NCBI GenBank assembly: GCA_951406725.2
Contig: OX597816.1
Location: forward strand, 120,156,001 to 120,220,000
Length of the DNA stretch: 64,000 nt
Direction of reading: 5' to 3'
Source of the DNA: Octopus vulgaris
Lineage: Eukaryota
Each line of letters opens with the position of its first letter. The stretch's first letter is position 1. The position numbers were made by a program, and so were the translations under genes. The notes under the pieces are model-generated. The model was not told where the DNA came from, searched no databases, and saw nothing but the letters and a program-made list of their open reading frames with translations. Positions 4,196 through 51,862 of the stretch are shown here, one piece after another.

Positions 4196-4438
4196 TACAC
4201 CCATTACCTATTTTTTCATCTTTGCCTTGTTTTATATTCACCTAGCAAAACATGTCAAAAGTTAAAATTATTGAGCTAATATTTTATTTTTCTCACAGCA
4301 TAAGCAATATTAATTAGATTTTTCTTTCTATATTTCATAAAGTAAGTAGGATTTATGTCCCTTCAATAGTACAAAATTAAATTCTGTAAATTTTTTTCTT
4401 TACATTATATGAATTATTTCTGTTTGTTTTAATTTCAG

Positions 4439-13003: not shown

Positions 13004-13838
13004 TCATGATTAAGTCTGCACAGCCAAAACAGCAATCTTTAATGAAATAACAAATAAACGAACTTTAAGTTCTGAACTTATGAAATTCCAACCATCATTC
13101 CATCCCTCATCTGGATTATTCATCACTCCCCCAATGCGTCACCTATCAAGGTAATGTCACAGTTTTCAAAAGTTTAACAACGAGGCTTTAAATTATAAGC
13201 AATATTTCTATGAATTTAGAATAGCCTAGTGACAAATGTTAAACTGCAATCTGTGTGATTTCTATAAACAAAATATGGTTATAAGATACTATGAACGAAT
13301 GTCTTGCCTCCTTCCTGCCCGAGAAAACCACATATTCACTATTGCAGCTTGCGTGGAGATGCCGATGAGCAGCTAGGGTTTTTAAAAAATTAAAAAAATT
13401 TTTTATGTAGGCCTTGATTATATTCTGCGTCAGTTTATATATCGTGACAGTGAATTATTTCCTTGTTGGTTTTAAATTGCTGCTAGCCACCTTGATTATT
13501 TTATAATTTTCACATTGCCATTTTGTGAAATCAGTCACTGATTCCAATGGCATTATCCCTAATATTGACAGGGTGAGTTGAACTCTGCCAACTGCGATGG
13601 AATGAACATTACTGATGAATATAAATTTCCTAAACGAAATTAGCATGCTAATCTAATGCATCTCGCTTTAAAGTGAGGAGAGTTTTCTCCCCTGTCAGTA
13701 CAAAGAGACCATATGCTTTTGTGGCTAAGAGGTCTACGACTTCTATTTCTAGCAATGCTGATAGTCACTGCACCCTTGACACTCTTAGTGACGGTGAATT
13801 ATTTCCTTGTTGGTTTTAAATTGCTGCTAGCCACCTTG

Positions 13839-13879
<41 letters not shown>

Positions 13880-16949: not shown

Positions 16950-19860
16950 AATAAAATTTCCCAATAGGGGTAAACGCCACTCTGGTACGGCTAAGGAACC
17001 TCACAAATCCCGAGTAACTCTACTACCTTTACTTTCCTTTCCAAGTGGAACTTAAAAAATAAAAAACGATGAAAGCTAAACTGCAGTCCTTTCAGTTGCG
17101 TTCACCTCACAACCTCGCCATATCCATCAGTCAGAGGTAAAATAACTGCTTTTCAAAACCTCGAGCTTCTGTAGAACTAGCTGCCAGGATCTTTACCCAA
17201 CCTTTCTATGATGTATCGTGCAAGGTGGAAGTTGTCGTGGGTAGTTCTGTTTGGCATGGTGCATGCATCTTTTGATATGGAGCATGCGCCTTACGCTAAC
17301 ACCGTGGCCAAAATCTTCAATTCTGTATTTAACAGAGTTAGGGACCTGAAGTTCTGTTAACCATCCTCCTCGTTCGGGTTCTTTCTCAACTGCACCACAC
17401 TTATTTTCATAGGACTGGTATTCTCGGTTTCTGCTGCCAGTTGCAATAGACATCTGCCAAGAGGCTCCAGAGCAAGTCTAGCATATGAAGACGAAGCTCG
17501 TAGAGTTGACCATCCTGCTTCAACGACTTCCTCTTTTATCCAGCCATTATTTTCCGTATTTCGTCAGATGTTATCGGCCTTTCACAGAACGTCTCATCCC
17601 TATTCAAGAGCTACAACAGACAGTTGAGGTTAGCTACATCCCTGGTTCACCGCCCGCCCCAAACAGTTGAATGAAGTGCCATTAAAAAGCTGCACATATC
17701 TGCTTGGAATTGAGTTGTACACGCCATTCCCGATCTGTTAAAGACCGAGTTGGGGCTTTACTGTCACGCTATGCCTCTGTCACTTGGGACCATCGAACGA
17801 CTTTCGTTCCATGCCTTAGAGCCCTATCTCTGACAACGCAACATCCATGCTTAGCTTTGAAGAATCGTTAGAGGTCAATCTCGCTGCCAACACGTCAGTC
17901 ACAGTGCCTTTCCTAAGTGTTTCTTCTAAGTTACTAACTAGGCCTCTTTCTGAAATTTCTATCATTATTTTCTTTCTCACACTCGTCTCCTATCAGCTAT
18001 TCACACACAATTAAGAAGTTCATCCAAATTGGCGTTTCAGTTGCCCACTAACACTAAAGAGCGGAGTATTTCCAGGAAAAAGTCCAGTTGCCTGAAGAAA
18101 TTCGGCTGCTCCATATCAGCCGGGTCTAGAAAGACCGACTGTCTCAAAGTCCAGGCTGTTCCGAAACAGCACTACCTCCTGCCCCACTATTCCGGGTTGA
18201 ATAAGTGATGTAAAGATCTCGAAATCGGCAAAAATTTGTGCTAAGGGCGTATGTCTAGAATCCTCGCCGTTAGCTATCATATCCAAATCTAGCAACCTAA
18301 AGTCATTGAGCAGGCGACTAGGCTTCCATGTTAACTTCAGGCCACGTGCATTTATATACTCCACTCTCAGAGCTGCCATGCTCGTAAAAAAAGAGGAAGG
18401 CGAAAAGGAAACGGGTTACTTACCCATTTGGTAGTCCTGTGGATCGAGTGACTTGGTTTACATGAAATTATGGGCTTCCTTCAGAAGCCTACTGCTGCCC
18501 TTGCGCTGAAGCATCCGACATTAATTGGGGAAATTATCCCTCATTATATATATCTCACAAATTTGTAGCACTTTGAAAGTGGTAAGCCTGAAGACCTTCT
18601 CTCTGTTTCAATGTTTTCTTTTAATGCAATAAGCGACATCAATTTTTCGTATTTGTACTCCTTGTCAGCATAAAGTTTGGACTGGGTGTGTTTTGTTAAT
18701 GTTGTACTTGTGTGTCTGTCTGATGGTGTAACTCCTTGGTTTTTGTTTTTTTTTGAGACGTGTGTTGGTGATGTTGGTGATTTTTGTGGTGGAGTTGTTG
18801 TTGCCTATGTTTGGTATGGGTGTCATTTCAGGGATACTGTCGTGATTTTAAAGAAAAAAGCTACCGGAGAACATGTATAATTTAAAAAAAGTTTTTGTTG
18901 TATTTATATTATATTGAAATTTTTTGTTGTTTTTCCTTTTTATGAGATGAGATATCTATACCAGAAATATCTGATGCTGGTTGGGGTAGAGGTGGAGGTA
19001 TATATTTCATGCGTGCTCATATGTGTATGTGTTTGAAAGGGGAAGGGGATGGAATATAAAGAAGGTGTTAAGTTGGAGATTTTTCTGGGTGCCAGGTTTT
19101 GCTTGTGTATTGTGGGTATCATTATTGCTGCTTTCCTGTCATTTGTAATGTTGGCACTGGTGTTATTGTTCTTGTAGCTGCAGTTGCGGTTATTTGTGTT
19201 ACTGTTGTTGGTGCTGACCTTCTTCTCTTCACTACTGCTATTGGGGCTGTGGTACCGGCAGTAGTGGAAGTGGGGTGTCTCCTCTATCATATTTTTTTGT
19301 AGAGGAAAGAAAGTTCCGAAGTGGCCTTCCGCACAACACAAATGGCATCTTGACCTTCTTCCCCTACCCTTAAACATGCAGCTAGACTTCATTGGAAAAG
19401 CGTATAAGGTCTGGGATCTTCTCTACATCCTCCAATTTGATTTGGAGGAGGATCTACACTATGGTCTCAAGGCAAAACTCCGTCTCCGTTCGTTTTACGT
19501 CAAAGAGGATGTCACCTCCCTTCAAAGCAGCACAGCCTAACTTCCACCAGGTGGAAACTCCCTCCATCTCTCTCTTTCTCATATATATATATATATATAT
19601 ATATCGAAAAGTTCTCCCTAAATTTGATGGCTATAGGGTGAATTTCCTGTCGTATATAGGAACTATGGAGTACTTCGGTGCGAGGGCTTTGCTCTCGAAG
19701 ACAGCCTCCATACTCCCGAACTGCTGTGCCCTGGTCACATGATCTATATCCACCCATATATCTTTCAGAGCTCTTTCCACCTGGATGTGTGCTGCCGCTT
19801 CTAGGCATCGGGTTTTAGCCGGTAGACAGAGATACAACACTGTTGAATCGGCTGTCATTT
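16950..19860 (-). mobile_element. L1/Tx1-like LINE, decayed and internally deleted
   Basis: ORF1 zinc-knuckle remnant RCHLCCAEGH (about 19340), then APE endonuclease start MAALRVEYINARGL...DLDMIA (18379). Confidence 0.65.
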
Positions 19861-20350
19861 AAGGAGAGTGAGAAGTACTGTGCTGATTTCACTGCCTTTG
19901 GAGTTCCCCACCACTTAATTTTTTATTATCATTCCACTTTCTCGTTAAAAACGTTGTCCTTATTGTTGTCGCTATCATTGCTGTTGTTATTGTCGTTATT
20001 CTCGTACAAATTTTCTCTCATAGAGTCGGTAATAGTATGAAAATTTCGATCCTTTCTACTATAGGCGCAAGGCCTATAGCAGAAAGGATTAGTGTTAACG
20101 ATTCTGCCAGTTCACTGCCTTCAATGGTTTTAAATTTTGGCTCAAGGCCAGTGAGTTCGGAGGAGGGGGTAAGTCGATTGTATCAATTCCAGTGTTCAAC
20201 TGGTACTTATTTCATCGACACCGAAAGGATGAAAGGTAAAGTTGACCTCAGCGGAATTTGAACTGAGAACGTAAAGACGAACGGAATACTGCTAAACATT
20301 TCGTTCGGTATGCTAACGATTCTGCCAGCTCGTCGCCTCAAATAACAACA

Positions 20351-20382
<32 letters not shown>

Positions 20383-20399
20383 GGAACGGGCTCTATTAT

Positions 20400-21330
20400 T
20401 TACTAAATTCACCTTGTTTGTATTCTCTATATTCTCCGTCAAAAACTTCCTGGAGGAAGGAGTTCTGCTCATAGTTTTCGTAGGCTCTCTGAATCCAGCG
20501 AGATCGATGCAGTTGGTTCCTCTTGACGAAAGGAAAACGACTGGGCCTAGTGGTTAGTGTGAACCTGGGTGTGGAAGTAGATACACCGTTAGTGACGAGA
20601 AGAGTAGAGACAAGTGGGTCGCAAATATCTGAATGATGGTGTCACGAGATCAACTATTTCCGATAAGTAGAGGCGATTATAAATTGCGGCAGAAAGAGGA
20701 AAAACAAAAGACAGCGTATCTGTACGCCGGTGATCTGAATACCTTTGTAAGTGACTACATCTGTCAGGCAGCCCTTTTAGAGATGTGGTTTAGGATCCCT
20801 GCATGCGTAGTGCAGCATCACAGTAGAGAATGTGGGAGCAAATCCATTATTGTTAGTTTCAACATTTTGTAAAGATTTAGCAGTTACTGGAAACCGAAAC
20901 AATTTCTGAAACAGTAGACAAGATCCAGTCTTTGTAACGCGATCTTTGCTATTCTGAGGTTGTGGTTTTGGTAGAAGAGAACAATGAGCCAGCATTGAGA
21001 GCTCGAGTTGCGTGCTGTTTATATTTAGAGAGGAAGACGCGATTGTGTTTCCATGATATGTGTAGTGACTACGCCTATGTGCTGTTAAATGAAGTAAGAT
21101 TGGTCCGAAACCACTGGATAATGTTTTCGAGATCTTTGGAAATGGAATCGGCGCAGATTTGGCATCAGGTGTTGAATTTGCTTCATGTGGATGAAACTTG
21201 CGTGTAGAGGATTAGAGAAGAATGAGAATTGGTATCACTTGCGTAGGAGTGTGTGTTAGCGGTGATAGCAAATTGGTGGTTGATGAATAGGATGAAGAGT
21301 GTGGGAGACAAATCCGAGCCTTCAGTCACA
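20400..21330 (-). mobile_element. Possible highly decayed Penelope-like element (RT C-terminus/GIY-YIG linker)
   Basis: Fragments ...LFQKLFRFPVTAKSLQNV... and ACRDPKPHL*KGCLTDVVTYKG resemble the CxC..CPLxGxCL..VVYK linker; weak. Confidence 0.3.
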
Positions 21331-21680
21331 CCAGACTTGTATAGAGTGTGTCATACAGAGTAGACGTTGTGATGCTGCCACCTGCACTGTATTTCACATT
21401 TAAAGAAAAAACGAAAAAGATAAAGAAAGAAAAATCTTGCTCTGTGATAGTGCAATGTTTTCAGACCCGCCAAAACATGAATTATTCTATGTGCTCTACA
21501 GTATATTACTGGCTAACTTCCTGTATTGATCACTGAGCGAACTGGTCACTGCAGCTCAACTAAAAATTATTAGTTTCAAAAGAAGCTTTGATGAATAATA
21601 GAAAACAAACAATTATTTCTCTGTTTGATCCTTATGACAACATGAATAAGTAACGGTAATGTTTTCAGTTGAAGTCGAGG

Positions 21681-21872
21681 GTCACCAATTGTAATCGATG
21701 GTGCAACGTTGGGATCACCATTTTGTAACGGTTAGTTCTTCGTCGCAGTCAAGGTTTACCAATTGTAATCGATGCCTGTTACAGTGCAACGTCGGAATTA
21801 CCAATTGTAACAGTTGGACAATAATTGATAAACACTAGGATGGAACTTCGGAGTCGTCACCAATTGTAACGG
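21681..21872. repeat. Array of five ACCAATTGTAA motifs with variable spacers
   Basis: Motifs at 21684, 21717 (ACCATTTTGTAA), 21758, 21800, 21859. Confidence 0.85.
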
Positions 21873-24800
21873 CAAAGATTTATTGCAACGGCATGTTGTA
21901 AGGTGTGAAAGATGAACAGTGATTAAAGTTTAAGAAAATATTTATTTACGACGGGTTGGTATGTATAACTAGTAAATGGAAAAGCATACGAGGTAAAAAG
22001 AGTTAATTTCGGCAGGTATGCGTGTACACGATCTCATAGTAGTATATATAGAGAGATATAATATTACAGAGAAAAGAAAGTGAGAGTCGAGGGAAGTTGT
22101 CTCTCATAGTCGCTGATTGTAACTTTCTTTTTCCCTCTGCCCGTTTGGTGTGTAGTGGCTGCCTGCTTGTGGCCATGATTCTAGTTGTCCGTTCACACTC
22201 ACTGATGATCGCTCTCACTGACTTTGCCTTACGGAGTTCTTGTTTTTATAACTATCCAAAAGGATAGACATATTGTTAAACACAATGGATTTCGTTGGAG
22301 GTCTGTTATCTCCATTCCAGCCCTGGTGGCCTAGAAGAGGTTAGAAGGGTCAAGTGGCGAAGACATTATTCCGGCTTAGCGGAGGCATCTGGTAAATGTA
22401 ACTGCTGTCACTAATAAAAAAAACTATTGTTTTATCATTAGAAAAGAGCTGTTGAACTGTTAAGTGAAATTTGGCGATTGAGGATCGAATCCACGCTATG
22501 CCTGCATGAAGCCATTACAAATATATTAATACATACAAAAGTAACTCTGTAACAAAATCGCATTAGCATATGTAAGGTCGGCATCCAAGTCATGCTACAA
22601 GAAAGAGTTACTTTTTTGTACAGATGGTACAAAAGCAAGCAGACAACGCTTTCATCAATGTTTTTGCTTGTAGGTGTATGATGTAATTATAAAGCAAGCT
22701 TCTAAAAAGCATTGTTCTTGAATACTTAACTTCATGATTGAAGTTGCAAGTTAGCAACAGAAGTCTTACACTATGCACAAGAGGAATTCTAAAAATTAAT
22801 AAACACATGAACTTGTTATAGTCAGTTTTCCCTTTTACCTCAACTTTAATCAGATAAACCTTCTTGAGATTATATTCTCTGCTACAAGCATATAAGACTG
22901 GTGTTTGAATTGGTTTCTTTAACTCGCTCCAAACAAATAATATGAATAATACAAAAGACAAGAAGCACCATTGTGAAGTGAGTGCCTAAATGAAATTCTT
23001 TATTTTCAAATACTCAAGTGTAATCTTCTTTAGCCAGGAGTTGGCTTGATTCAAGCAATCTCCACACTGCCACGAAGAGATAATATTACAAGTCTATCAT
23101 GATAAACTATTCAAACTATTTCCAGCCATGCTGTTGCCCACTGATGAAACCTTAGTGACACCTGACTCACAGCTTGTCTAGAGTGTTACGAACCTAAAAA
23201 CGTCAAATTTAATTGAAACAAACAACTGAAATCCAATGTTTTGATTACATCACGTGATAGTCAGAAACTAGAGCCAACAAACTTTAGAGCAAGATTGGGA
23301 AGATTAACTATCGTTGAAGTTATACATAACCTCATTAAATTCTCAATAGGTGTATCTGGTACCACCCAAAAGGGTCTTGAATCATAACTGAATTTGTATG
23401 TGTCGACAAATACAACACTAACTGGAGCAAGATGAAATTCAACTAATCAATTCTTCAGCATCCATGTCCATCTAAGGTGCTTCTATTTCTAGCAGCGTGT
23501 GTGTGTGTGCTTGGTTATCTTTTAACAGACAGCTTAGCTTTTAATGCATTATTGATACAAAGAGAGAGAAACTATGTAGTAATTAGAAAGTTTGCTACCC
23601 TCTTTGAATTCAAATGTTACGTTTTCCTTATGCAATTATTACAGTGCTTCTTTAGCGTGTGATCTACAAGGGAGATTACTGTAGGTTACTTTTTAGTTTA
23701 CTTCTCAATTTCTAAAAACCCGTAAGATATTGGCTAAAGATTTTTACAATGTGATCAGTGACGAGACGAAGACATTTACATTTTTACAAGAAACCAGCAC
23801 TAAATTCATATCATTTCTTAAGAAAACGAAAGGTGTTACTTTAGTGTGTGATCTACAATTTAAAGTAGCACCCATTACTCTATAGCAAAATCAAATCACA
23901 AGAATCTAAATAGAAATTTGCAAGAAGTCTGTGCGACGCTCTATCTTTGATGCAGCATAGTCCACTCCGGAAAAAAGAGAAAGGAAGAAAATGTCGACAG
24001 AGCATTGTGTATATTCATAGAAAATATATCCCAATTGCAGACAATATCATGAAGATCTCTACGTGCCAAAACCAGTCCGAAACTCAACACACACATCTTT
24101 AACATATTTGCCAGTTAGCATACCCAGATGACAATTTTAAAGATCCCCACTGTATTGCAAAAACACAATCATCGTCTTTCAGTAGAGGTTTATTAGGTGC
24201 AATTGCCTTAAAGGGAAGAAACTCATGATAAGTTTATAAAAAAAAATCAAAAAATCAACTGACATCTGGGTTGCACTCAAAATATGATCACAACATTATA
24301 GACGTGGTTTTCCTTTTAAAACATCATAGTAAATTGGGTTATAAAAAGTGTAAGAGCTCTATCCTTAAATAATATTCATCTCCTATATTTACTTTTTATC
24401 ACATCTGACTGGCACTAATACTGATTTTTATTTTTGTTGATCAAACCCCGGTCAGCCCCTATCGAGTAGACATAACCATACAGTTTATTTTTTAATTTCT
24501 ATACATGTATTGCTACACGAACGTCGAACTTGTATTTGTTTCCTTAATACTGCTACAGGGACCCGTACACCGACGACTGAAAGACGGTGGATACTTGCTT
24601 AAGATTAAAAAAAAAACAAAAAAACGCGGCAACGCAAGTTGAGCGATATTTTAGTTTCTCCATCCCTATATGACTAGATATGCAGAACCAAAATTTAACA
24701 ATGCTTGTTTTCAAATAAGCATTGTTATATATAAGGAAAATCGCACGCAAAAAAGTATTTTCTACTGAAGATATACATTGAATTTATATTTGAAATTAGA

Positions 24801-27800
24801 TCCTGGAAAAATATGCTTTTAATTGTTAAATTTAGCTCTCCACATGGGTTCATGAAAAGATGCAGAAAATGAGATGTCATTCGACTCGCGCTGTTACTAC
24901 ATTAAAAATTTTTTTTTCAAAAGTAATGCCTGCTGGGCTCGATTGCTCTGCATTGATAAGGAGCAAACACCCTGAAACTAGCCTGCAGATGCCTGACCAG
25001 CAAGGGGAAGCGGCTGACCTCCCTAGTCCGAAGGTTATAATGGACACAGATTCGTGAGTCACATGGCTAGCTAGAGGCGATGGCCTCTTGGAGCTAATCA
25101 ACGGCAGCATTCGTCCTATATTTCTGGACTGCCATATTAGCTTAGGGATAACTATTAATACATAACCTGTTCTTGTAGAAGTATATAATACAGAAACTAA
25201 ATTTCGTTGTTTGCATTTCCTTGTCGATTTTTCATTTCAAGTCTTATTTTTTTCTTTTGTTTTATTCTGACACTAAAATAAGACTTAACTTAGTAAATGA
25301 TTCAACTTGGAATATTGATTTGCCACTTCGTTCATTGAATTAAAGCCATACAAAGGCAAATCCATCGATCCCAGCATTTATTTCGGTTTGGGCTCCTCCC
25401 TCTAAAATTACTTTTTAGTTGAACGTACAGCACAGTTTCTGTCTACTAAATTTCAGTCGCGAAACAGAATATTGTGAAAAACATTTGTCCATGCTGTCGT
25501 GCAATAGAATTGAGGGAAAAACAAACGTAATAAGCCAACGTAATCTCGACCTGCTAAAAGCAGCGGTCAAACCTCGTTATATAAAAAAAAGAGACAGGTG
25601 ATAACGTAGATGAGTTAGATATGTAGCGGGAATACTCAGCAGTCACCCGATGTCACGATTCGCTAGAATATTACCCATGTGATTAACAAAATCTGGCTAA
25701 TCTCGAGGAATAACATTCTGCGACGGTTTCATCTTTCTGACAGCGGACAGCTGTTGACCCAGGCTGACAACAACCACAACGACTAGCAGCTAATTTTTTA
25801 ACAACTATTACAGCTACACCAAGAACAATAACGTTCAAACTCTCTCAACATTTTGTCGTTTACTGTAACGACAGTATTTGTGTTTTTTTTTTGTGTACGG
25901 AAAGTATAAAATTTTGTTAATCAGAAATCGCAACAGATTCAGAGTTCTTCGTACAGATACTTAAAAAAAGTGGAATAAAACTTGTAGAATACCTTTGATT
26001 ATAGGTCTTTTCTATCAACGTTAACCTTCGAACTAAACAACAATACAGTAAATTATAGTATCGAATTATAATTAATTTACAAAGGCAAAATCGTCAGAGC
26101 GTCGGAAAATGTTCTCTGCGATATTTCTTCAGGCTTTTCCCGCTCAGGGCTCAAATTCTGCCTTTCATCCCTCAAGTCAATGAAATAAAGAGCCCGTCTA
26201 GTTCAGAAGTGAAATGGTATCCACTAGCCCTGTTCCCTGAAAGTGTTTTTTCTTTCTTTTTTTTTCCACCTGAATGTTCGGTAGGGAAGCTGCGGTATGT
26301 TGGACAGCCTAAAGCACCACACGGTAGACGACATTTTGGTTTTGGCTATCGGGGCGAACACGAGAAGGATTTATTTTTGCATCCGACTTTCCAGTAAAAA
26401 GTTTTCTACCGTGTAACTTTGCAAAAATGGGAAAAATCGATTTTTCGCAATTTTCATGGGAATCAGAGGCACCAAGGCAGTGCCAAAATATTTGTCTGAA
26501 ATGTCGCAACATGACGGTCCTTTTTTACACCAAAATTATAAAAATCGGACGTTCATGTAAAAACGTTTCTCGCGTGAAACTTTTGCCTTTTTTTTCTCTC
26601 AAAAAATGGGGTGGGGCTCATTTAAGTTTTATCGATTTTTCTACTAGAAGTGGGTATCCCTAGGCAACTGTAATGCGGTAGTAATCTAACTGGGTAAATT
26701 TGCCATTTAATAAAAAAGATTTCACCAAAATCGGATGAAAAATGTGGAAACGCATAAAAAGCATACACACACACATTTTGAGTTTTATAGGTAATCACCC
26801 TACCAGGATACAACAAAATTTGTATCGAAACAAGATTTGACATCGAGACTCTTACAAATCAAATACGAAAGCGAATGTATTTGCATTTAACCTGAAAATC
26901 TTCAATTTCACTGATAAAAGTGATATGTATAGTGAAGAAGTTTGTGTAAATGAACTAAGTCAATATTTTTGGAAAATTATGCAAATGGAATCGCCCAATA
27001 ACTTTGATAAGTATAAAAATTTTTCTGTGTTCTTACTTGCAGAGAATTTACAACATACAACGAAAATGTGGCTCAGAACCTTAGTTCTTTTTCTTCAATA
27101 CAAAATATAGTTTCGTTATTCTTACAGCCTAATTGATAATTTCAGGGTCTCTTAAAGTTCTCTCTGCAGTTTTTTCCGTATTTCCGTTTTTTGAAATGAT
27201 GGGGGGAAGCTTTTTATGAAAAAAAAATTAATGAAAATTTATGATTGTTTTCACCCCACCCTATCCAGACCGAATATGGCCAACTGTTCTTGCACTACAC
27301 GAAAAGGTATTAAGAAGATCGTGGGATGTACTAGAAACAACAGCTAAATCTCCCTTAAATCATGCATCTTTTCTTCTGAAAATATTTTCAAAATTTTTTT
27401 CTTTTTTTTTTACCGAAAGACTTTCCCCATTATTTCCAAACTGGCCAAAACGGTCCGGATGGGTTTGGAAATATGAGGGGGAAATCATAAAGTTTCAAAA
27501 ATTTCCCCTATTTCGAAGGTCGTGGTAAAAAACAAAAAAATTGGAAAACTCCCCGTCAAAACAAGAGAAAATCCAACTTATGTAGGCGTCCTGATCCGAA
27601 ATTCTACCAAGGGTAGAGAACTCTTTGCTAGCATTCGTATTTGAATCCGCCTGCCGAAAATCCACATGAAAAACAGTTTAACTCTTAAGACTACTTTTCT
27701 ATTCTAGGCACAAGGCTCGAAATTTTCGATTAGATTGACTCCAGTACGCAACTGGTACTTAATTTATCGACCCCGAAAGGATGAAAAGCAACGTCGACCT

Positions 27801-28779
27801 TGGAGGAATCTGAACTCAGAATGTAAAGACAAACTGCGTATATCTGAATTAGTAAAATTAAAGATTCATTATTGTTTTTGACACGAATATATCACCATAG
27901 GCTTATTATTCACACAACTCATCCTTGCTGTAACAGTCGCTCAGCCAATAGAAAGCAGAACTGAGCAGCACCCTTCTTGTGGAGGCATTGTACATACAGC
28001 CACTGCTATTAATGACGTCAGTAAATTGGACAAATCAATTTGCGTAAATAGCATATTCTTGGCAGCTAGCCTGATTAATGAATTATTTACACATTAGCAA
28101 TGTTATATTTGAGTGTAATAATGTTCACAAAGTTTTTGTAGAAAGACAAGTTGGCTTGTGTCTGACCAATGTTTAATATACATCTGCACTGTCGGCTAAT
28201 GTCTATAGATTTAAAGATTTACTCTATAGGCCATTGTAGTTTCAGAATATAACACTGTTACCGATTTACTGAATCCTTTAATGATAGTGGCTAGACATGC
28301 AGTGTATCTGGGAAAACGGTACTCAATTGTTAATGAGATTCCAATGTCAGAATCGAAATCAATGTAGCTGATTTCATTCTTTTCTGTCCACAAAGAGATT
28401 TTATTGAAAAGACAGGCTGTTCACATATATCCTGCTTCAGTTGCATATGCAGTGTTGATTATAATATATTGATTTACAGTATTTTGTAATACATTAATCG
28501 CATCAAAACAGTAGTTAACACATCCGTAATTTTATAATCCTCACCGCTTTTAAGAGAGAACTATAATCAATTATAATAGTAATAATACCATTCACATCTA
28601 GGAATGTTATATATTCCTATCATGTATTGGGAATATACCTGATAGGTAATTTACTGATCCTGGAACCATGAAAAGCAAAGTCGACATTGGGAAGATTTGA
28701 GCTCAGAACATAAAGTATCTTACCTTTTTTCAGCATCATATTCCGTTTAACTTCGAATGCATTAACTCCCATCTCCACC

Positions 28780-29480
28780 GCAACATTAAGGATGTGTGAT
28801 AGTGCGACAACCATTAATAGTGGCATTTGCTTTTAGTGCAAGTGCAAAGCGTAAGTCCATTGGATCTCTTCCCATCATCCTTAGATAATGCCATTGACTC
28901 AGAATTGAGAGGATACTTAACTCTGACTGTGTTTGCATATCTAGTAGTGAGCAAAACGACGAACATTCAGTCGATAATCCACTAAAAGCTCCTGTACCGA
29001 GGGGTTGGTCACACTGACACGTCATTTTTCCGCACGATTCGGCCCCAACTACAAGAACAATGAAAATGCAGAGTTCATCCGGACTAAATGAACCGCCGAC
29101 GTCTGCCACAGGCAAGGTGTCAACCCAATCCTCAGAAAATTTGGAACGTGCAGAAAACAAGAGACACCTTGAATACTAATTAGAGAGTCGAAAACATGAC
29201 GAGAAACATTTACGTAAACCTAAACCCTTGACTCATTTGGCCAACGCAGCCCGGGTAAGAAATTTTGAAGCGAGTTTAACATTGACCACACTTTAGAGTT
29301 TCTCACGAGATCGTCAAAAAGTTGCAAGGACGTCGAGAATCTAAACGAGGGACTAGACTTCAGTTTGCAAACTAACTTATGGATCAGCAAATAATTTCTA
29401 AGATTAAAAAGCTTAGATGGAGCTCAATTGCATCAAGGTCTTTGAGTAGCTACTTAAGCTTTCATGTCTTGGTTCCAAAG
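28780..29480 (-). mobile_element. CRE-clade non-LTR retrotransposon fragment, decayed
   Basis: FSEDWVDTLPVADVGGSFSPDEL...CQCDQPL aligns with YSGDWIDAIPVTNVGGLLSLDEL...CCCDRL in the 52.3-55.4 kb element. Confidence 0.8.
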
Positions 29481-30734
29481 TAAGACAAAAAATTGAAGAC
29501 GTCATCTATAAGATATTGGGGGCAAATACCATTAGTTCAGGGAGTAAACACTGCAGATTGATAACTTGTTTATTCAAATTCTATTTCTGATATAGTTGTC
29601 GTAAGTTTTAGTCAAAACAGCTTTAAGTGCAATACACGAGCGAGCCTCTGAATATTGTGTGTGTGTGTGGGGAGGGATTGTAACGCCATTTTAAAAATTT
29701 GTTGTCACTCTTCCGTTGAAATTATTTTTTTTGGTTTTTGTTCATATATAGGGCAATCGGGCGGAGATCACGTGATGCCATAACGCAGTAGTCGTGATTC
29801 TGCACGCTTTCGTGGATATTCCCTCATCCATAAACATTTTGTTTGTCATTAATTTACACTGATTAATATGCAAGTAAATAGTCACGCAACGTTTATATAA
29901 CATAATGGACATGGGATTGAAACTGGTGCTTACTGTGAACAGTGTACGACCAACAAAAGTTAACAGAAACAATTTAACTAGACTGAGACTAATTACAAAA
30001 TCTTAAGTAGATTAGTCATTGGCAATAAAACGAGACAACAGTCAATGGGAACAAACAAAAGGTGATTTTTCGGGCAAGGCAGTGAGCAATTTTTAAAGGG
30101 TATAGTTACTGGTAGTTGTTCTATTGACCTGAACAAAGGTGGAAAACTAGGGCAACCTTAATGAGATTTGATCATAGAATTTTCTGTCTACATTATCAAC
30201 AAAAGAAGATAATAGTATTGGACAAAAACTGTTAAAAAAAAAAAAAATGCCTCTCCACTACCCTCAACGAAATTTTCAGTAGAAGCTTCAAATTTTGGCA
30301 CAAGGTCAGAGTGGGGAGATCGATTACACAGAGCTCAGTGCTTATCTGGTAATTATTTTATCGATCTCGAAAGGATGCAAAGCCAATCTGACCTCGGCGG
30401 GATTTGAACACAGAAAGCAATAAGTCGGGAAAAATGCCCAAAGCATTTTATCCGAAGCGCTAATAATTTTGGCAGTGTGCTGCCCTAATGGTTTCATATT
30501 TTGGCACAAGCCAGTAATTTTGAGGATGAGAGCTAGTCGACCCCGGCAGAATTTGAGCCCAGAATGTAAAGGTGGACGGAATGCCGCTAAACATTTTGCC
30601 TGGTGTGCTAACGATTCTGCCAGCTCGCCGCCTTAATAATAATAATCCTTTCTACTATAGGCACAAAGCCTGAAATTTGTAGGGGAGAGGGGAGGACAGT
30701 CGATTAGATTGACCCCAGCACGCAACTGATACGT

Positions 30735-31397
30735 TTATAATTCTGCTTGTTCGTTCGTTCACACGTTATGCTCTACTTTGTTTGAAAGATGAAGAGGGAG
30801 TGTGAGAGTGAGTGAGATAGCAGATAACCAGCGGCTGCATTACGCTGTCACTCATGGTATTAGTGGAAGTGAGAGGTGAAGAGAAAAAAAGAAATGTTAA
30901 TATGAAGAAGGGAATTCCATGGTTAAAATGTTTGTTGAGGCAAGTGGGGAGAGAGAGAGAGAGAATGTGCTTAGCAGCAGGAAATTTTATATATTATTAT
31001 GAATGGACATGAAATTACTTAGTAAAATAGCTGTGGGTGTTATTTTAAAAAAAAATTTGCAATGGAATTGAAACTAATCATGTAAATAAAAACATTGTGT
31101 ATATTCTCTATATCGATTTTTGCACATAAATAGTATATAATGTAAAGTAATTATGATGAAATATTGCATAATAAGGAATACGAAGTTATATATTGATCTT
31201 ACAGTTTCAACTGAATTAAATACTAACAAATGATATGTGTACTAAGTATTGTATAAATTGTCAATGCATATTTTTGTATTATATATTGCACACGCAACAA
31301 GATTTATATGCAATAAAATGCATATAATCCTTTCTTTCTTAAATAACTCCTCTCAACTTTTTTCCATTCCGCGGAATTTCCACGGGTCCTGTAAGTA
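30735..31397 (+). mobile_element. Possible non-autonomous Helitron 3' fragment
   Basis: Ends in GC hairpin CCGCGGAATTTCCACGG followed by a degenerate CTAG-like terminus. Confidence 0.3.
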
Positions 31398-33457
31398 ATA
31401 ATAATTCTTTCTACTACAGGCACAAGTCCTGAAATTTTGGGAGAGGGATAAATTAATTTCCTCGACCTCAGTTCTTTACTTGTTTCATCGATCCCAGTTC
31501 TGTACTCATTTCATCGACCCCGAAAGGATGAAAGACATAAGTCAACTTAATAATAATGATGATGGTCAAAAGAATATGAATAATCAACTTTATCAAAGTC
31601 CTGTCATACAGCATGTGTGGTATTTTGTGTTGTCTAGATCAGTGCCGTTGCGATATCAAAAGTTACAAAGGTTTTATCACCAGTAGTTTAAAAAAGTTAC
31701 GCAAACGGTTACAGGAATAGTTTTGATGATGAGAAATTATGGCAAATAGATTGGTAAAGTATAAAAGGAAAAGTGCACAAGTCCTAATTAAACTATACTA
31801 TATCAAAGCTATTAGATAGATGTAGGTTGAAAGGTTGCCAGTATGCATTGCAGCATAATTTTTAAGCATGTAGACTCTTATACAGATGTTATTACTCTTA
31901 ATTTCTTTTAACTTTATGCATATGGGCACAATCCATATACAACTTAACACTTCAAGCTCTAGTACGAGTTTTCAAGGTTGCATGTGGATAGTGCTGGGAC
32001 TGGCATGTACTTATTTCATGAGTAGAAACATTTCAGTGAGGATACTATAGTCTCAACAGCAGAAAAAGAAAATATAATCCATCTTTGGCACTTTTACAAA
32101 AATGTATTAGTGCTACTACATACATAAATATTAAACAATATCCAAAAGAAACCATTTAACTGAACGGCAGAGTCATTCCACTTATATCCACTTACTTTTT
32201 TTTTTTGCCTCTTACACTGTTAATGCAACTAGCAAGCTGCAAATTACCTCCATTCATTATTTCTTCTGTTTCTCACCAGTAGACACTACAGTAAATATTT
32301 TGCTCAATCATCCTTTCAAAGAACTGAAACCTTCTGGAATTCTTTCCTTGTCCACTTTTAACTGCAGTTATCAACTAATCCTTGATCCAACTTAACATCA
32401 ATCTCTTTGATCTCACCAACTTGAAGAATCTAACAAAGGTCATACACAATGCTCTATCTCACCCTTTGACAAATCACATGAAAATATTAATACAATGATC
32501 ATTCCAGCTGTGTGATTCACATCTGGGATTACAACAATGAATACTTATGGGTAGCCTATGTTGTAACCCCAGACATAAATCACAGACTTAACTGATTAAG
32601 TCTATAATTATAGTATATAATTGTGTTTATATAACATGAATAATGACTAATAATGTTAAGTTACAACAGAATGATGACTGATAATGGTTAAGTTTCATTT
32701 GTGATCCAACATGAATTGCAGTAATCAGATATACCATGAATTGTAAGATGTCAAAATAACTAATCTCTGCTGTGACATCAAAGATTGTGCTATACATGTT
32801 ATTAGAGTTAAGAATTATCCTGTCCTAATGGATATAACATGGATTAAGTCTCTTCAAGAGAGGTGATAATGTTTAGATCAGTTGTTTACAAAAATAATTC
32901 ACAAAAGTGTTTATTAAAGCACCGGGGTTATCAGGCATATTACAAAAAAGGTTGTCACAACACTGGTTCACATCAGATGGATATACAAGAAATATAGGAT
33001 TAGTTGTAGAGTGGTTTCATCAGAGGAAAACAAAATGGGGTTAATTTCAACAGTTTCACCCATAGGTAGAATAAGTTATATAAAAGGGCTGTATACTGGT
33101 TACCTTAGTAGAAATATACAGTGGTTACATCAGAGAACCAGCAATGGTTACATAAATAATTCCATTGGAGAAATTTTATAGGGATAATAATACAAATTAC
33201 TCAGATAGGTTACATAGTAGTTGCAGCATTAGTTAGATCATAAAAGTTACAGTGAGTATATCACAGAGATAACACAGAAATTAAAACACACACAGTGGTT
33301 ATATCAAAAGGAATACAACAGAGTCTCCAATAGGAAAGGGGTTACAACAAGGATTACAGCAATATGAATTTACAAGAGTGTATCTGGTGCAAGATAGGGA
33401 CTAAAATGTCCACTGAAATGATATTCCCCTATGTCTTTATAGAATGTAAGGAATGTA

Positions 33458-45929: not shown

Positions 45930-46322
45930 ATATAGATTGGAAGGGACTTTGCACCATCGGCAGACTTGGTCTGTGGCACTCAGCAAGCTGTCCCGTAGGA
46001 ATTTCCAGCTACCTTGTATGTCTGATGTCTGTAGTTCATCCTTCCTCTCATTAAATTTCTTGATGTGGATGTCCCTAAATCTCTGACCATGTGAAGGGTT
46101 CTTTAGCTTCCAAATCCTTCTTTTCTGGATTGGTCTGCTTCTTGGTATCCTTCTGGCCTTGAGCCTAAAGTCACTAATGACTAGCCTATGCTGGCGGGTA
46201 CATTCTTCACCTGGGAGAGTCTTTGTATTTAAGAGCAACCCTGCGTCCCACTGTCTGGTGAGGATGAAATCAATATGGCTAGCAGAGTCCCCTGACTGAT
46301 AGGTTATAAGGTGGCTGTCTGG
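45930..46322 (-). mobile_element. RTE LINE endonuclease C-terminal fragment
   Basis: HLITYQSGDSASHIDFILTR...KTLPGEECTRQHRLVISDF. Confidence 0.85.
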
Positions 46323-46529
46323 CTTTATACATACACACATATATATACATATATATATACATACACAAAAATTAGAAAAAACCACCTTTTATCAATTCAA
46401 AATGAGCAATTAAATTACACCATCTAGAAAATTACATATAATAGAAATATTAAAATTAAAATAACAATAATATACCGATGATTAAGTAAATTGCAAAATA
46501 ATAATAATAAAAACGTATATATTTGGTAG

Positions 46530-46638
46530 AATAATGACATGTGTTTCGTGGCTATATTTAAGAAATGATTATAGTAAAAAAATTAATAGTGGTAGTAAAA
46601 TCACTTCGATATAAATATAGCCACTCATCAGGTTAAAA
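46530..46638 (-). ncRNA. Type I hammerhead ribozyme motif (Penelope/retrozyme type), copy 1
   Basis: CTGATGA (46631-46625), perfect 13-bp helix II GTGGCTATATTTA/TAAATATAGCCAC, GAAAC-ACAT-GTC (46547-46536); helix I weak. Confidence 0.75.
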
Positions 46639-47865
46639 ATAAACTAGAATAAAATAATTAATTAATAAATATACTTTAATATATATATATCAGTTACTAA
46701 ATATACATTAAGTGAAAACTAAGAACAATACTTAAATTATTCAATACTTTAAAATTAATTAATATACACGATGCTAGTACAAGCTATTAATATTGTAGTC
46801 AAAATAAGAAATGGTTCAAATATAGACAAACTCATTAAATTAGCTAACTATATAATTAATATATATATGTGTAGTATCTATAGTTTTAATACATCACTCT
46901 ATAATATAGTTGACTAAAAGCTAATTATCTTAAATTTAATACTACTTAATAAATATACCACCTAATAATTAAATAATATATTGTCTAAGAAAATTAATTC
47001 TCAAATTAAATTAAATGTAATACGTTGGATCCCTTTATAACAAAAAATTAAAAAAAACTAAATAAATAGATATAATAATTAATATCTATCATAACTTATA
47101 ACTATCAATATATATAAAAATGATATAATGGCGAAAATTATTTACTAATGGAAAGTAAAAAACATTTAAGCCCCATAAATTAAAGAAAGGTGCAAAAATA
47201 TTAGAACAAATGAACAATACACTATGAAGATATTCAACTACAACTGACAGTCCTCTACAAATCCAGTCAATAACAATAATAATAATAACAACGATCAAAC
47301 TCAAAATAATACAAGATCCAAATAATATTGATAAACAAACTATGTTACGAAGTTCAACGATTAAATTAATCTATCTAGATTTTAAATGTATAAAAATATG
47401 TTTTAGTGTCTTATTATTATACCCAATGCTATTACTAGTCATCTCTTATTATAAAAGGCAGATTTTTATCTGCCTCCCTTTGGGAGTTATACAAATCTAC
47501 AATATAGGATTTCTTCAATTACAATTTACCTAGCATTTTTAAGAGTACAATGCATCGCGTCATGCCAGGTCCAGTTTTTAAAATTTAAACTCCAATTAAG
47601 CAAAATTTACAGAAAACTCACATTCTGGTGTGTGTGTCAAATGCTTTTCTTAGTCTGGTTTACACCACACGCAAACGCACACACACAGTGGGCAACAAAT
47701 AAAATGAAAGTAAATAGCGACAGAGTGATTTGAGGAAGACTAAAGTGAAAGTATTCTGTCTATGACGCTGATAGATACATGAGTAAAATGTATGGGAAGC
47801 TAAGAGCTAAGAGTGAGTGAAAATGTTCTTGGAAGAGAGTAATTAGTAATAAAGTAAACATACTC

Positions 47866-47879
47866 ATACATACATACAT

Positions 47880-47916
<37 letters not shown>

Positions 47917-47952
47917 TACATACACACACACATACATACATACACACATACA

Positions 47953-47984
<32 letters not shown>

Positions 47985-48158
47985 CATACATACACACACA
48001 CACACACACATACACACACACACAGTATTGAAGCTTGAGAACAATCAGATACATTTGCAACACATCTGTTGAAAATATTATTGTTCACACACATACATAT
48101 ACATATATACATACAGACAGACAGACAGATAGACACACACACACACACACACACACAC
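47866..48158. repeat. Compound (TACA)n/(CA)n/(CAGA)n microsatellite
   Basis: Direct inspection; source of the VCVCMY-type spurious ORFs. Confidence 0.95.
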
Positions 48159-48199
48159 ATGATCCAGCATGGCCACAACCTCAAGGCTGAAACATATAA

Positions 48200-48580
48200 A
48201 AGAATAACAGAATATAAATGTGTGCAAAGTACAAGAAATATTAATGCAGTATATGGGGATTGGACAATAAGCGTAAGGCAGTGTCAATGGTGGTTCCAGA
48301 AATCCCGAGCCATAAACTACAGCCTAGAAGACGAGCCTCATCCTGAAAGATCTGTAGAACTCGACAAGGACATCCTGAAAACCCTGGTGGAACAAAATAT
48401 CATCGTAACTGTTGAGGAACTAGCAGAGAAGCTTGGATTTGGTCATTCAACCATTCATTGACACCTGTGTGCTATCGGAAAAGTCAGCAAATTGGGTCAA
48501 TGGGTTCCTCACGAACTTTCCGAGTCTAATTGCATGCAGAGAGTGAATGTATGCTTTTCTTTGCTGTCATATCTCACCAC
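48200..48580 (+). mobile_element. Mariner transposase N-terminal (HTH) fragment
   Basis: TRNINAVYG...QWWFQK...SLEDEPHPERS...VEELAEKLG...KLGQWVPHEL. Confidence 0.88.
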
Positions 48581-48596
48581 TACTGCGCTATGTATA

Positions 48597-49234
48597 TCTA
48601 TATATATAAAACTGTAGTTGTGTGAGTGTCTGTCCCCTTCGATTTAGATTCCTAACTACTCCCACATTTTGCGGTACAGTTTAACCAAATTCGGGTAGCT
48701 TATAGTCATGATTCATATCGAGCCCGTCTGAATATTAGCGCGCGTCTACGATGAGTCTACGATTTTAAAAATAATTTAACATCATTTTTTATTCCATTTT
48801 AATGCATAATTTTTCGTGTGTCGATGGCGGCGGAGTTGGCGTCCACGCTCACACCTGCACCTGTGGGGAAGGGAGTGTAAGGAAATCAACGTCGTAATGC
48901 GTTATCAAGGAGACCAGTGTTCTTTTAGAACAACGACTTCATGGCTTGAAGACACCAAAACAGAAATGGCTAAGAAAGCGTCTACATGAGTCTACGATTG
49001 AAAAAAAATTTACCATCGTTTTTTTTCCATTTTAATGCATTTTTTCGCTATTATATAAGGGAAGTAACTCTCTAAAAATGTCTACGATGAGTCAACGATT
49101 TAAAAAAAAAAATTACCATCATATTTTTTCAATTTTTAATGCATTTTTTGCTATTTTTTTGGCTATAACTCTCTAAAAATGCTTATATAGTTATTTCCCT
49201 TACAAACCCGAGCAACGCCGGGCGATACTGCTAG
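48597..49234 (+). mobile_element. Non-autonomous Helitron
   Basis: 5' TC(TATATATATAAAACT), 3' hairpin CCCGAGCAACGCCGGG then CTAG; inserted between A (48596) and T (49235). Confidence 0.9.
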
Positions 49235-49899
49235 TGAATAATACAATCAAAAATAGGAAATAGTTCAAATATACACAAATCCATTATATGAACTAGCTAT
49301 ATTATTAAAATCTGTGTAATATCTATAGATTTAATATTTTACACAATAATAAAGTTAAAACATAATATTAATTAAAATAAAAACTAATTTACTTAAATGT
49401 AATACTACTTAATAAAAATATTACCCAATTATTAAAAAATGTATAGTCTAACGAAACTAATTCTCTAATTAAATTATATGTAAAACGTTAAATCCCTTTA
49501 TAAAAATTAATAAATATCATATCTAATAACAATCGTAAAAAAATAACTATCAAGATACTATAAATAAATAATAATATTTCAACAACAATAATAATAATAA
49601 TAATGATAATTTCAAACCCTAAACGATTCCAAATCCAAATGAAATAGATAAACAATAAAATGTAAAATGTAACTTAACTTAGCGAAGGAAAATTTTAACT
49701 GAATTTAAATGTAAAAATAGTTAATAGCGTTTATAAAATTTAAGGCGTGAAGACACAGTGCAAAAAATCAATGGAAATTGTAGTTGTGATACCAGTGCCG
49801 GTGGCACGTAAAAAGATCCATCTGAACGTGGCCGTTGCCAGTGCCACCTCGACTGGCCTCCGTGCTGGTGGCACGTAAAAAGCACCAACTGATCGTGGC

Positions 49900-50042
49900 T
49901 GTCGTTGCTAGAGTGTATGCTGCTCAGGAAAGCCCTTGAGCTCACTGGCTTCGGTCCCATCCTCGATACCAGCTTATACAGCAGACCCAAAAGTGCTCCC
50001 TGAGGTGGTTCGCCCCTCGATCTCCACCTAGCTACACTACTG
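49900..50042. mobile_element. Truncated hAT-type MITE inside a SINE
   Basis: Ends CTAGCTACACTACTG, a CpG-decayed form of a CAGTAGCGTAGCTAG-type TIR. Confidence 0.5.
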
Positions 50043-50418
50043 ACGTAGTGTAGCTTAACCATTGCATTCAGATTGTGCCTATTTCATTATATATTTATAT
50101 TTACATGCCAGTGGCACGTAAAAAGCACCAATCCGATCATGGCCATTGCCAGCCTCGCCTGGCACCTGTGCTGGTGGCACGTAAAAAGCACCCACTACAC
50201 TCACGGAGTGGTTGGCGTTAGGAAGGGCATCCAGCTGTAGAAACACTGCCAGATCAGACTGGAGCCTGGTGCAGCCTCCTGGCTTCCCAGAACCCAGTTG
50301 AACCATCCAACCCATGCTAACATGGAAAACAGACGTTAAACGATGATGATGATATATATATATATATATATGTTTTAAAGTATATTTATTGATTAATTAT
50401 TTTATTATTCTAGTTTAA

Positions 50419-50528
50419 TTTTATCCTGATGAGTGGCTATATTTATATCGAAGTGATTTTACTACTACTATTAATTTTTTTACTATAATCATTTCTTAGA
50501 TAATAGTCACGAAACACGTGTCGCTATT
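50419..50528 (+). ncRNA. Type I hammerhead ribozyme motif, copy 2 (inverted relative to copy 1)
   Basis: CTGATGA (50426-50432), long helix II GTGGCTAT.../...ATAGTCAC, GAAAC-ACGT-GTC (50511-50522) with palindrome ACACGTGT. Confidence 0.78.
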
Positions 50529-50799
50529 CTACCAAATATATACGTTTTTATTATTATTTTACAATTTACTTAATCATCGGTATATTATTGTTATTTTAAT
50601 TTAATATTTCTATTATATGTAATTTTCTAGATGGTGTAATTTAATTGTTCATTTTGAATTGATAAAAGGTGTTTTTTTTCTAATTTTTATATATATATAT
50701 ATATATTATATTTTGTGAAATTTGATTTAGTATTTCTAAATTGAATTTTTCCCTGTAAGTTAGGAATAATATTCCCTCAAATAATAATAAATATACATA

Positions 50800-51862
50800 A
50801 CAAATAGTACTCCAACCACCAGAGTAGGTAATATACTGGATCTCTGCTTCACAAATAATATCAATCTCATCCATCATGCGAAAGTGACACCGATGCTACT
50901 CTTGGATCACAACATGGTAGAACTGACCATATATGGACCAAAGGAAATCATAGACATACAGCCTACAAGAAACTCTCAAAATCTTTCCAGTTTGAATTTC
51001 CATAAGGCAAACTGGAAACAAATTAAGAAAGAGATCCTCAAACAAAACTAGCTTAAATGTTTCACCTCACTGGACATTAAACTTCAACAATTCATGTCTG
51101 TAATGCAAGCCATATGCTACAATCGTATCCTGGAGAGAAAGGCCACTATACACAAGGACAAAATCCCCAATGAGAGGAAAATTCTTATGCTATGGCATAC
51201 AATAATTTCAAATTGCCTAAACAAACAAATTGAAAGTAGTGAAAAATCTTGCCTGAAAGTCCAACTGCTGGAGATGGAAAAACATTTGCAACTTCCTATG
51301 AAAAAGAAAGCAAAGAAGCCTGGGCTACGGACAATATAAAATCTAACCCCAGAGCTTATTACAAGTTTGCCAAAACACAGCCTCAGTGCACTGCAGGGTA
51401 GGGCCACTCCTCGAAAAAGATGTTTCACTCACAGGAAACCCAATGACGATAAGTGAAATACTAAATAAGCAATTCAAAAGCGTTTTCACTCCACCCTTAG
51501 GATACTTGTAAGTCAGCAATCCAGCTGACTTTTTTACCAATGTAGATATAAAAACAGAGGCAGTGATGATTGATTATAGATGAAATGAACCCGAACTCAG
51601 CTACTGGCCCTGATAGATTCCCAGCAATCTTTCTAAAAGCATGTAAGTGAGTCCTGGCAAGACCACTGCAGTCCCTCTTCCAGAGCTTCCTTGCAATCTT
51701 CCAAGCAAGCTGAAGGAAGGTAAAATATGCCCCATTCATAAAGGATGTAGCAGAGCAGAGGCTAAAAACTAGACCTATCTCTCTGACCACACTCATCAAC
51801 AAAGTAACAAATAGTCAGAAGAAAGACTAATCACCTTCCTTGAGAAAAATGACTTGCTGACT
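50800..51862 (+). mobile_element. CR1/Jockey-group LINE ORF2 fragment (endonuclease end to RT start), decayed
   Basis: NILDLCFTNN...DHNMVEL...NFHKANWK; NSATGPDRFPAIFLK; IHKG...RPISLT. Confidence 0.82.

Follow-up and report, generated by a model that had tools for sequence, protein, structure and literature searches.

The window analysed here, a 64-kb stretch (64,000 nucleotides) of the Octopus vulgaris genome (contig OX597816.1, positions 120,156,001 to 120,220,000 of the forward strand), holds exons of the MTHFR gene and two inverted copies of an AT-rich unit, each of which carries a hammerhead ribozyme motif with a very long helix II. The close similarity of the inverted pair, described in an earlier note on this DNA, is borne out by pairwise alignment, in which positions 46343–46690 of the minus strand and 50364–50711 of the plus strand are 92.4% identical over 353 columns, flanks included. 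Between the units proper (46367–46679 for copy 1 and 50376–50688 for copy 2), 296 of 308 aligned letters are identical and 12 differ, with 10 further gap columns, and an nhmmer search found only these two copies in the 64-kb window. The copies face each other, share the terminal base at the 3' end and are flanked on their outer sides by (TA)n, in agreement with the suggested association of the repeat family with (TA)n. Copy 2 is the shorter one, and its start coincides exactly with an inner (TA)n of the element to which the units belong.

The catalytic core CUGAUGA...GAAAC-N4-GUC, which the earlier note had assigned to each unit, was recovered in both copies by a hammerhead descriptor, and both display a type I hammerhead core (CUGANGA, GAAA and NUH, with the three helices in type I order). 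Copies 1 and 2 are the two matches of the descriptor in the window, and 200 dinucleotide shuffles gave on average 0.265 matches with a helix II of at least 4 bp and 0.015 with at least 7 bp; the hammerhead motif with its long helix II is real and lies far above chance. Helix II, previously given as about 78 nt, measures 77 nt in copy 1 and 78 nt in copy 2 with 22 predicted pairs each, and its base in copy 1 is indeed formed by 13 contiguous pairs. The C17 residues sit exactly where the cuts had been predicted, after 46536 on the minus strand and after 50522 on the plus strand.

With a z-score of −4.66, the fold of copy 1 was equalled in stability by none of 200 shuffles, and that of copy 2 (z −0.51, 60 of 200 shuffles equally stable) is no better than chance. 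Helix II is weaker in copy 2 (−15.2) than in copy 1 (−21.6). Helix III, as a self-duplex, reaches −10.3 kcal/mol in the form of a perfect 8-nt palindrome compared with −5.2 kcal/mol in copy 1. Neither copy has an intact helix I: counted from the core, the first of its four pairs is lost in copy 1 and the second in copy 2. In the three large sequencing runs described below, the majority letters at 46535 (94–99% of the depth) and 46540 (97–99%) are those of copy 2, and with these letters helix I forms four pairs and helix III the perfect palindrome, as most family contigs would have it and as the consensus proposed earlier (4-bp helix I, palindromic helix III) requires. The letters of copy 1 at both positions are CpG-type transitions away from the family majority, which fits the previous description of its helix III as CpG-decayed. 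Since the copies lie on opposite strands, no local transcript bears two sense motifs. With helix I broken in both, copies 1 and 2 are probably inactive, as had been suspected, while the motif of the family would, judged by its letters, be functional.

The Rfam hammerhead models, named in the earlier note as a check, gave no match in the window at the gathering score, nor in 46200–51000 at E-values up to 10, likely because of the long helix II. Two other explanations of the arm are unsupported: as an intron within helix II, since among the listed contig joints none skips helix II and the stem is fully paired, and as a separately inserted mini-transposon, since its contig depth is not above that of the flanks and it occurs nowhere else in the window. 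In public collections, relatives of the unit were limited to one metagenome locus over 24 bases and one viral locus over 19 bases; four viral loci matching the core pattern are chance matches, which possess neither a closing helix II nor a cut triplet.

The repeat family is abundant. In a run search with copy 2, part of this copy was found in 20 of 24 listed rows, which carry four organism labels. Contigs from four runs were aligned to 46250–47600 (1,351 bases), with 2,667, 8,242 and 3,923 aligned contigs in the three large runs; individual contig pieces are described for the 32 listed ones (14,917 others exist) and variants for 40 of 134 rows. Among the listed pieces, three, one per large run, cross the inner (TA)n at 46680–46690 with at least 31 letters on each side (X1, 46564–46748; X2, 46622–46775; X3, 46563–46817), and as 13, 15 and 21 of their letters, respectively, differ from the locus, they likely derive from another locus. 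Contig cover runs on to about 47440, at least 750 bases past the unit, so that at other loci the unit continues for at least this distance and represents the end of a longer element. The (TA)5 on the 5' side of copy 1 (about 46680–46690), formerly taken for one of two target flanks of a self-contained element of about 320 bp, is shown by the bridging contigs to be internal to the longer repeat.

In the listed variant rows, variant-bearing contigs number 110–126 at 46406, 58–87 in the hammerhead and at most 51 upstream, and the summed depth declines from the bin at 46388 upstream (Spearman rho −0.91, −0.87 and −0.88 over 22 bins in the three runs). Relative to the listed long contigs, the depth amounts to about 19,000–33,000 at the end, 1,100–4,400 over the hammerhead and 240–290 upstream; since contig depth is not copy number and cannot rank parts, and since the 80% likeness limit drops diverged copies, this gradient is only a hint of abundance and 5' truncation. 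One contig contains an opposite-strand joint between 46646 and 47427, as an inverted truncated copy would give. Contigs of run X15, which is only guessed to be RNA, lie over parts of the unit and say nothing on transcription. The last 100 bases of the element (46388–46470) are common to diverged sister subfamilies, the loose ends at 46464–46470 running on in three runs into sequence that is related yet not the same, and this segment may be a binding or start site for reverse transcription.

At the locus itself the longer element is interrupted (Table 1). Joined across the insert, the 31 bases that precede 47444 and the sequence that follows 49235 form one continuous alignment with 46758–46883 (128 columns, 75.8% identity, E = 1.8e-21), and the 32-base part of this cross-junction alignment was by itself matched by one of 10,000 shuffles. 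The continuity of the alignment indicates that the insert at 47444–49235 splits a tandem duplicate of about 650 bases, the copies of which, modules A and B, are identical at 384 of 499 aligned letters (77%). In addition, the AT-rich stretch 49240–49740 is 75% identical to 46801–47055, and two listed contig joints that step back by 598 and 488 bases are consistent with the tandem duplicate. The element comprises 46367–47443 and 49236 to about 49745, is at least 1.6 kb long and is non-coding.

The insert, which we take to be Helitron-like, bears microsatellites and a fragment of a mariner transposase at about 48231–48572 (Pfam HTH_48, E = 1e-05), and contig depth is very high from 47446 on in all four runs. 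It appears composite, with its 5' TC end at 47444, another start (TC-TATA) near 48594, and a 3' hairpin with CTAG at 49207–49235. The unrelated repeat fragment at 49746–50351 is presumably of the RTE or short interspersed nuclear element (SINE) type. One insertion with an inverted 5' copy and two separate insertions are about equally probable origins of the pair: for the former speak the 3' ends, which both point outward into (TA)n, the shorter, inverted copy 2 and the CpG content of the block, which is above that of the flanks; for the latter, the stretch of about 600 bases from a different repeat that separates copy 2 from the long copy and is not marked as the later arrival by any duplication.

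Table 1. Features of the element, its hammerhead motifs and its insert in the window (pLTR, pseudo-long terminal repeat)
Feature	Positions	Strand	Evidence and remarks
Hammerhead of copy 1: C3 46631, helix II 77 nt (13 + 9 pairs), C17 46536	46532..46635	-	Descriptor, fold; helix I lacks its first pair, helix III is no longer palindromic
Hammerhead of copy 2: C3 50426, helix II 78 nt, palindromic helix III, C17 50522	50422..50526	+	Second helix I pair broken, helix II weakened
Copy 1, pLTR-like 3' end module of the long element	46367..46679	- (sense = minus)	Alignments, nhmmer
Copy 2, short 5'-truncated end module in the orientation opposite to copy 1, with (TA)n after it	50372..50688	+	Alignments, nhmmer
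Likely target: (TA/CA)n microsatellite adjoining copy 1 at its 3' end	46328..46366	.	Sequence
(AT)n where copy 2 begins (5' junction), corresponding to the inner (TA)n of the element	50352..50371	.	Sequence
Upstream continuation: inner (TA)5, T-rich non-coding module A (about 46758–47412), first 31 bases of module B	46680..47443	-	Bridging contigs, depth, cross-insert alignment
Later insert splitting module B at A|T; TC at the start, CTAG at the end behind a short G+C hairpin	47444..49235	+	Junction letters, depth
Rest of module B, the 5'-most element part seen here	49236..49745	-	Tandem duplicate of module A, diverged
Fragment of an unrelated repeat, with (GAT)n at its end; separates the long copy from copy 2	49746..50351	+	Other copies in the window

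Hammerheads at the ends of Penelope-like elements (PLEs) have been known since 2014, and the system itself is not new. The motif described here resembles the metazoan PLE hammerheads in pLTRs (PMC4209133) in its type I core, its G10.1–C11.1 pair, its 4-bp helix I and its short palindromic helix III, and also in occurring mostly as solitary copies with some pairs on opposite strands. Those hammerheads have a helix I of 4–5 bp and a helix II of 7–8 bp, show low activity and need dimers (PMC4209133); the 4-bp helix I, treated as a defect in the earlier note, is thus normal. In contrast, even the 'larger' helix II of the same set has 6–8 bp as compared with 77–78 nt and 22 predicted pairs here, no unpaired base stands between positions 9 and 10.1, and the opposite-strand pair is spaced by 3.8 kb instead of 100–700 bp. 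In viral hammerheads, a 'long helix II' also means 6–8 bp (PMC13725137). Among the 34 motif rows in File S2 of PMC8557442 the longest helix II has 53 nt (PLE-X1_sMoe), and the core-only descriptor of that study has a spacer of 7–17 nt. The long helix II is a new trait, longer than any in the published tables compared. A literature search, thin on subscription papers, found no cephalopod hammerhead of such form. Dimeric variants of PLE hammerheads are reportedly described in a 2017 paper.

Elements of the Hydra clade of PLEs, such as Penelope-13_HM and Hydra-1_oBim, share with the octopus element the preference for (TA)n, the sense hammerhead near the 3' end, which in most rows of Files S1–S2 of PMC8557442 lies about 90–210 nt from that end, and T-rich flanks. 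Inverted 5'-truncated copies are described for the (TA)n-preferring Hydra and Naiad families (PMC8557442), and, as may hold here, such a copy yields an antisense motif at the opposite end, exemplified by Penelope-13_HM with its sense motif at 2944 and its antisense motif at 102 of 3045 bases. The motif of Hydra-1_oBim differs in sequence and has a helix II of 22 nt, and Hydra elements, at 2.1–2.7 kb, consist mostly of open reading frame (ORF) (PMC8557442), whereas the element here runs for at least 1.6 kb without one. Naiad_Ovul and Naiad_Obim, the octopus Naiad elements, likewise target (TA)n, and their long T-rich 3' region contains an internal duplication, but their 3' end sequences are different and are scored 'HHR_half_core' or as devoid of a motif (PMC8557442), in contrast to the complete core in normal order found here. 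By eye, the Naiad_Obim and Naiad_Ovul 3' ends given in File S5 of PMC8557442 seemingly hold both hammerhead boxes in swapped order, the GAAA box coming right after the close of a hairpin and the CUGAUGA box following some 25 bases on; the 'half core' of these two elements could be a permuted hammerhead.

A sense hammerhead about 170 nt from a (TA)n-flanked end, together with a shorter inverted copy, corresponds to the published PLE layout, and we consider it likely that the units represent the 3' end of a PLE family that targets (TA)n, or of a non-autonomous derivative of that family. The cut site lies 169 nt from the (TA)n-flanked end. Both copies are 5'-truncated with a common 3' end, copy 2 being the shorter, and contig counts and depth drop upstream, which is softer evidence. 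An inverted pLTR partner is present, though with 600 bases of another repeat at the junction. Many PLE inserts are bounded by inverted, shorter pLTRs, and long spacers precede the 3' pLTR (PMC3846280). Thirty Penelope families have recently been active in Octopus vulgaris (PMC13282606), and the repeat library of that study may already include the present family as Penelope or as an unknown repeat.

Several observations weigh against this assignment. The 1.6 kb present contain no ORF for a PLE reverse transcriptase or GIY-YIG endonuclease, the copy being 5'-truncated or non-autonomous. No Pfam family was found in six frames of 46700–47562 at E-values up to 1, one plus-strand frame had no match among 1.84 billion proteins, and the longest minus-strand frame had none among 136 candidates. 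A codon-position signal is absent, with no frame favoured by the majority letters and no third-position excess between the modules, so that the lack of coding potential noticed before in the unit holds for the element, too. More than 1.6 kb without an ORF also exceeds the distance between ORF and end that Hydra elements of 2.1–2.7 kb permit. Three short motifs of the unit have no occurrence in the Naiad, Chlamys and Hydra consensus files, where a motif may go unseen if it is split by a line break. By eye, the printed ends of Naiad_Ovul, Naiad_Obim and Hydra-1_oBim differ from the unit as well; no identity with these consensus ends was found. Neither a target-site duplication nor a 30–40 bp tail is recognizable next to microsatellite flanks that hide duplications, and both features are optional in PLEs (PMC8557442). 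Finally, even with majority letters the monomeric hammerhead fold is predicted to lie 4.9 kcal/mol above the minimum-energy fold (7.1 in copy 1, 8.2 in copy 2), as would be expected of a motif that depends on a partner or a protein.

Other candidates for the AT-rich sequence were tried. A coding remnant in the modules was rejected for now, as Pfam, protein searches and codon-position tests were all empty, and a short resemblance to a PLE reverse-transcriptase motif found no support. A nuclear copy of mitochondrial DNA or ribosomal RNA was discarded, given no Rfam match and no open frame under table 5.

MTHFR is encoded on the minus strand (exons recognized by Pfam PF02219 and PF21895), to which copy 1 is sense as noted before, and a splice acceptor just before the ATG of the first coding exon indicates an intron in the 5' untranslated region (5'UTR). 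At 55500–57200, amid CpG-poor DNA, the observed/expected ratio of CpG rises to 0.86, and this region is possibly the MTHFR promoter or a young repeat. Together with the low CpG ratios in the flanks of the block, it weakly suggests that both copies lie inside the 5'UTR intron, in which case they would pair with each other over 299 bases, burying the hammerhead. Elsewhere in the window, a degraded retrotransposon ORF with reverse-transcriptase-like motifs in its translation is seen at 52700–54600 (+), and broken DNA-transposase-like frames, presumably hAT-like, at 13820–15985 (+), the longest of 253 amino acids at 15224–15985.

The PLE assignment has to be weighed against the proposal of the earlier note that the units are a retrozyme without long terminal repeats (non-LTR), that is, a 320-bp non-coding unit, arranged in tandem elsewhere, the hammerhead-cut monomers of which would form circular RNA and two dispersed monomers of which lie in the window. 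The likeness is considerable: non-LTR retrozymes are AT-rich, non-coding, about 300 bp long, equipped with a type I hammerhead and related to pLTRs, and the size, the low G+C content and the type I motif agree (PMC7229834). Retrozymes are described as derived from pLTRs, with monomers frequent in many families, and the invertebrate set of the same work, judged by its text, holds no cephalopod (bioRxiv 10.64898/2026.07.22.740005). Moreover, the end module is far more abundant among contigs than the upstream part, and copy 2 starts exactly at the inner (TA)n. Retrozymes are, however, defined as tandem repeats with one hammerhead per unit (PMC7229834; bioRxiv 10.64898/2026.07.22.740005), whereas the locus contains two solitary inverted copies rather than head-to-tail units, at the end of a longer element, and contigs of three runs pass the 5' edge of the unit into module A. 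Among the 10 listed joints none links the 3' end to the 5' edge, an argument that is weak because 46250–46374 was skipped as a repeat and such joints were possibly lost. On this comparison, made at the level of DNA, a retrozyme is unlikely. The ordinary pLTR that the earlier note kept as its fallback comes nearer the mark, though no coding ORF is attached in the 1.6 kb present.

Copies that face each other, end at an identical base and have (TA)n as outer flanks are also what a single DNA transposon spanning 46367–50688 would display, with terminal inverted repeats of 315 bp, a TA target duplication and the hammerhead as a passenger; the observed/expected CpG of the block, 0.59–1.99 in five parts as against 0.17 and 0.19 in the flanks, would suit such a younger block. 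Inverted ends are nonetheless a known product of PLEs, no transposase is linked to the ends, the letters needed for the RNA fold are retained in the family contigs, and the depth steps down from one end instead of showing flat terminal repeats at twice the interior (a soft criterion), which makes this a very improbable origin. The long T-rich non-coding end, the truncation gradient and the empty search for a PLE ORF would equally suit copying of the long interspersed nuclear element (LINE) type, in which case the units would be the 3' end of a microsatellite-targeting non-LTR element outside the PLEs (Dong/R4, Tx1), or a SINE-like passenger, with an acquired hammerhead; Dong-R4 and Tx1 families have been recently active in Octopus vulgaris (Table 1 of PMC13282606). 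Against this stands the minimal type I hammerhead near the 3' end, a signature of PLEs, as well as the lack of a poly(A) or simple-repeat tail of the element's own. The ribozymes known from Dong/R4- and Tx1-type elements are hepatitis delta virus (HDV)-like and located at the 5' end. This origin is about as improbable as a DNA transposon. Hardest of all to credit is that the pair has been retained as a regulatory element of MTHFR in its 5'UTR intron, where it would either cleave the pre-mRNA or supply RNA editing with a long duplex. The sense orientation of copy 1, the splice acceptor before the ATG and the CpG values, low in the two flanks of the block and raised at 55500–57200, allow such a role, and copies on one transcript are predicted to pair over their 299 bases with −384 kcal/mol. 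Any inverted repeat gives a duplex, however, which is no sign of selection, and letters of helix I and of the palindrome that are present in nearly all family contigs are gone from copy 1, a pattern that resembles neutral decay.

For a (TA)n-targeting PLE family, the following course can be envisaged. The PLE endonuclease would nick a TA run, and reverse transcription would begin near the 3' end of the element and mostly halt early; short 3' pieces of the kind of copy 2 would then be numerous and long ones of the kind of copy 1 less so. Where a transcript is a partial tandem, its two hammerheads might pair via the 8-nt palindrome and cut the precursor, perhaps with help from the element's protein, while the long helix II might serve as an arm that folds by itself and supports the core without loop–loop contacts. 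In work with a purified PLE protein, AT-rich DNA was cut, both strands were extended and the element's own hammerhead was assisted by the protein; reverse transcription started internally, and the hammerhead was dispensable for insertion in vitro (PMC11167929). A bolder version, which we regard as doubtful, is that the units represent an abundant cephalopod family of non-autonomous PLE passengers of at least 1.6 kb with an active hammerhead, hidden from Rfam and from the published descriptors by its 77-nt helix II.

As regards the host, the inverted pair could yield a long duplex in the MTHFR pre-mRNA, with no sign of use. A long helix II evades the usual searches, and counts of ribozymes in animal genomes may therefore be too low; with a wider descriptor, it can be tested whether some PLE clades are indeed devoid of hammerheads, as has been stated. 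Should the bolder version be true, long-armed hammerheads would form a hidden class with the octopus family as its first member, and a hammerhead would be present in some of the PLEs that are scored as ribozyme-less or as 'half core'.

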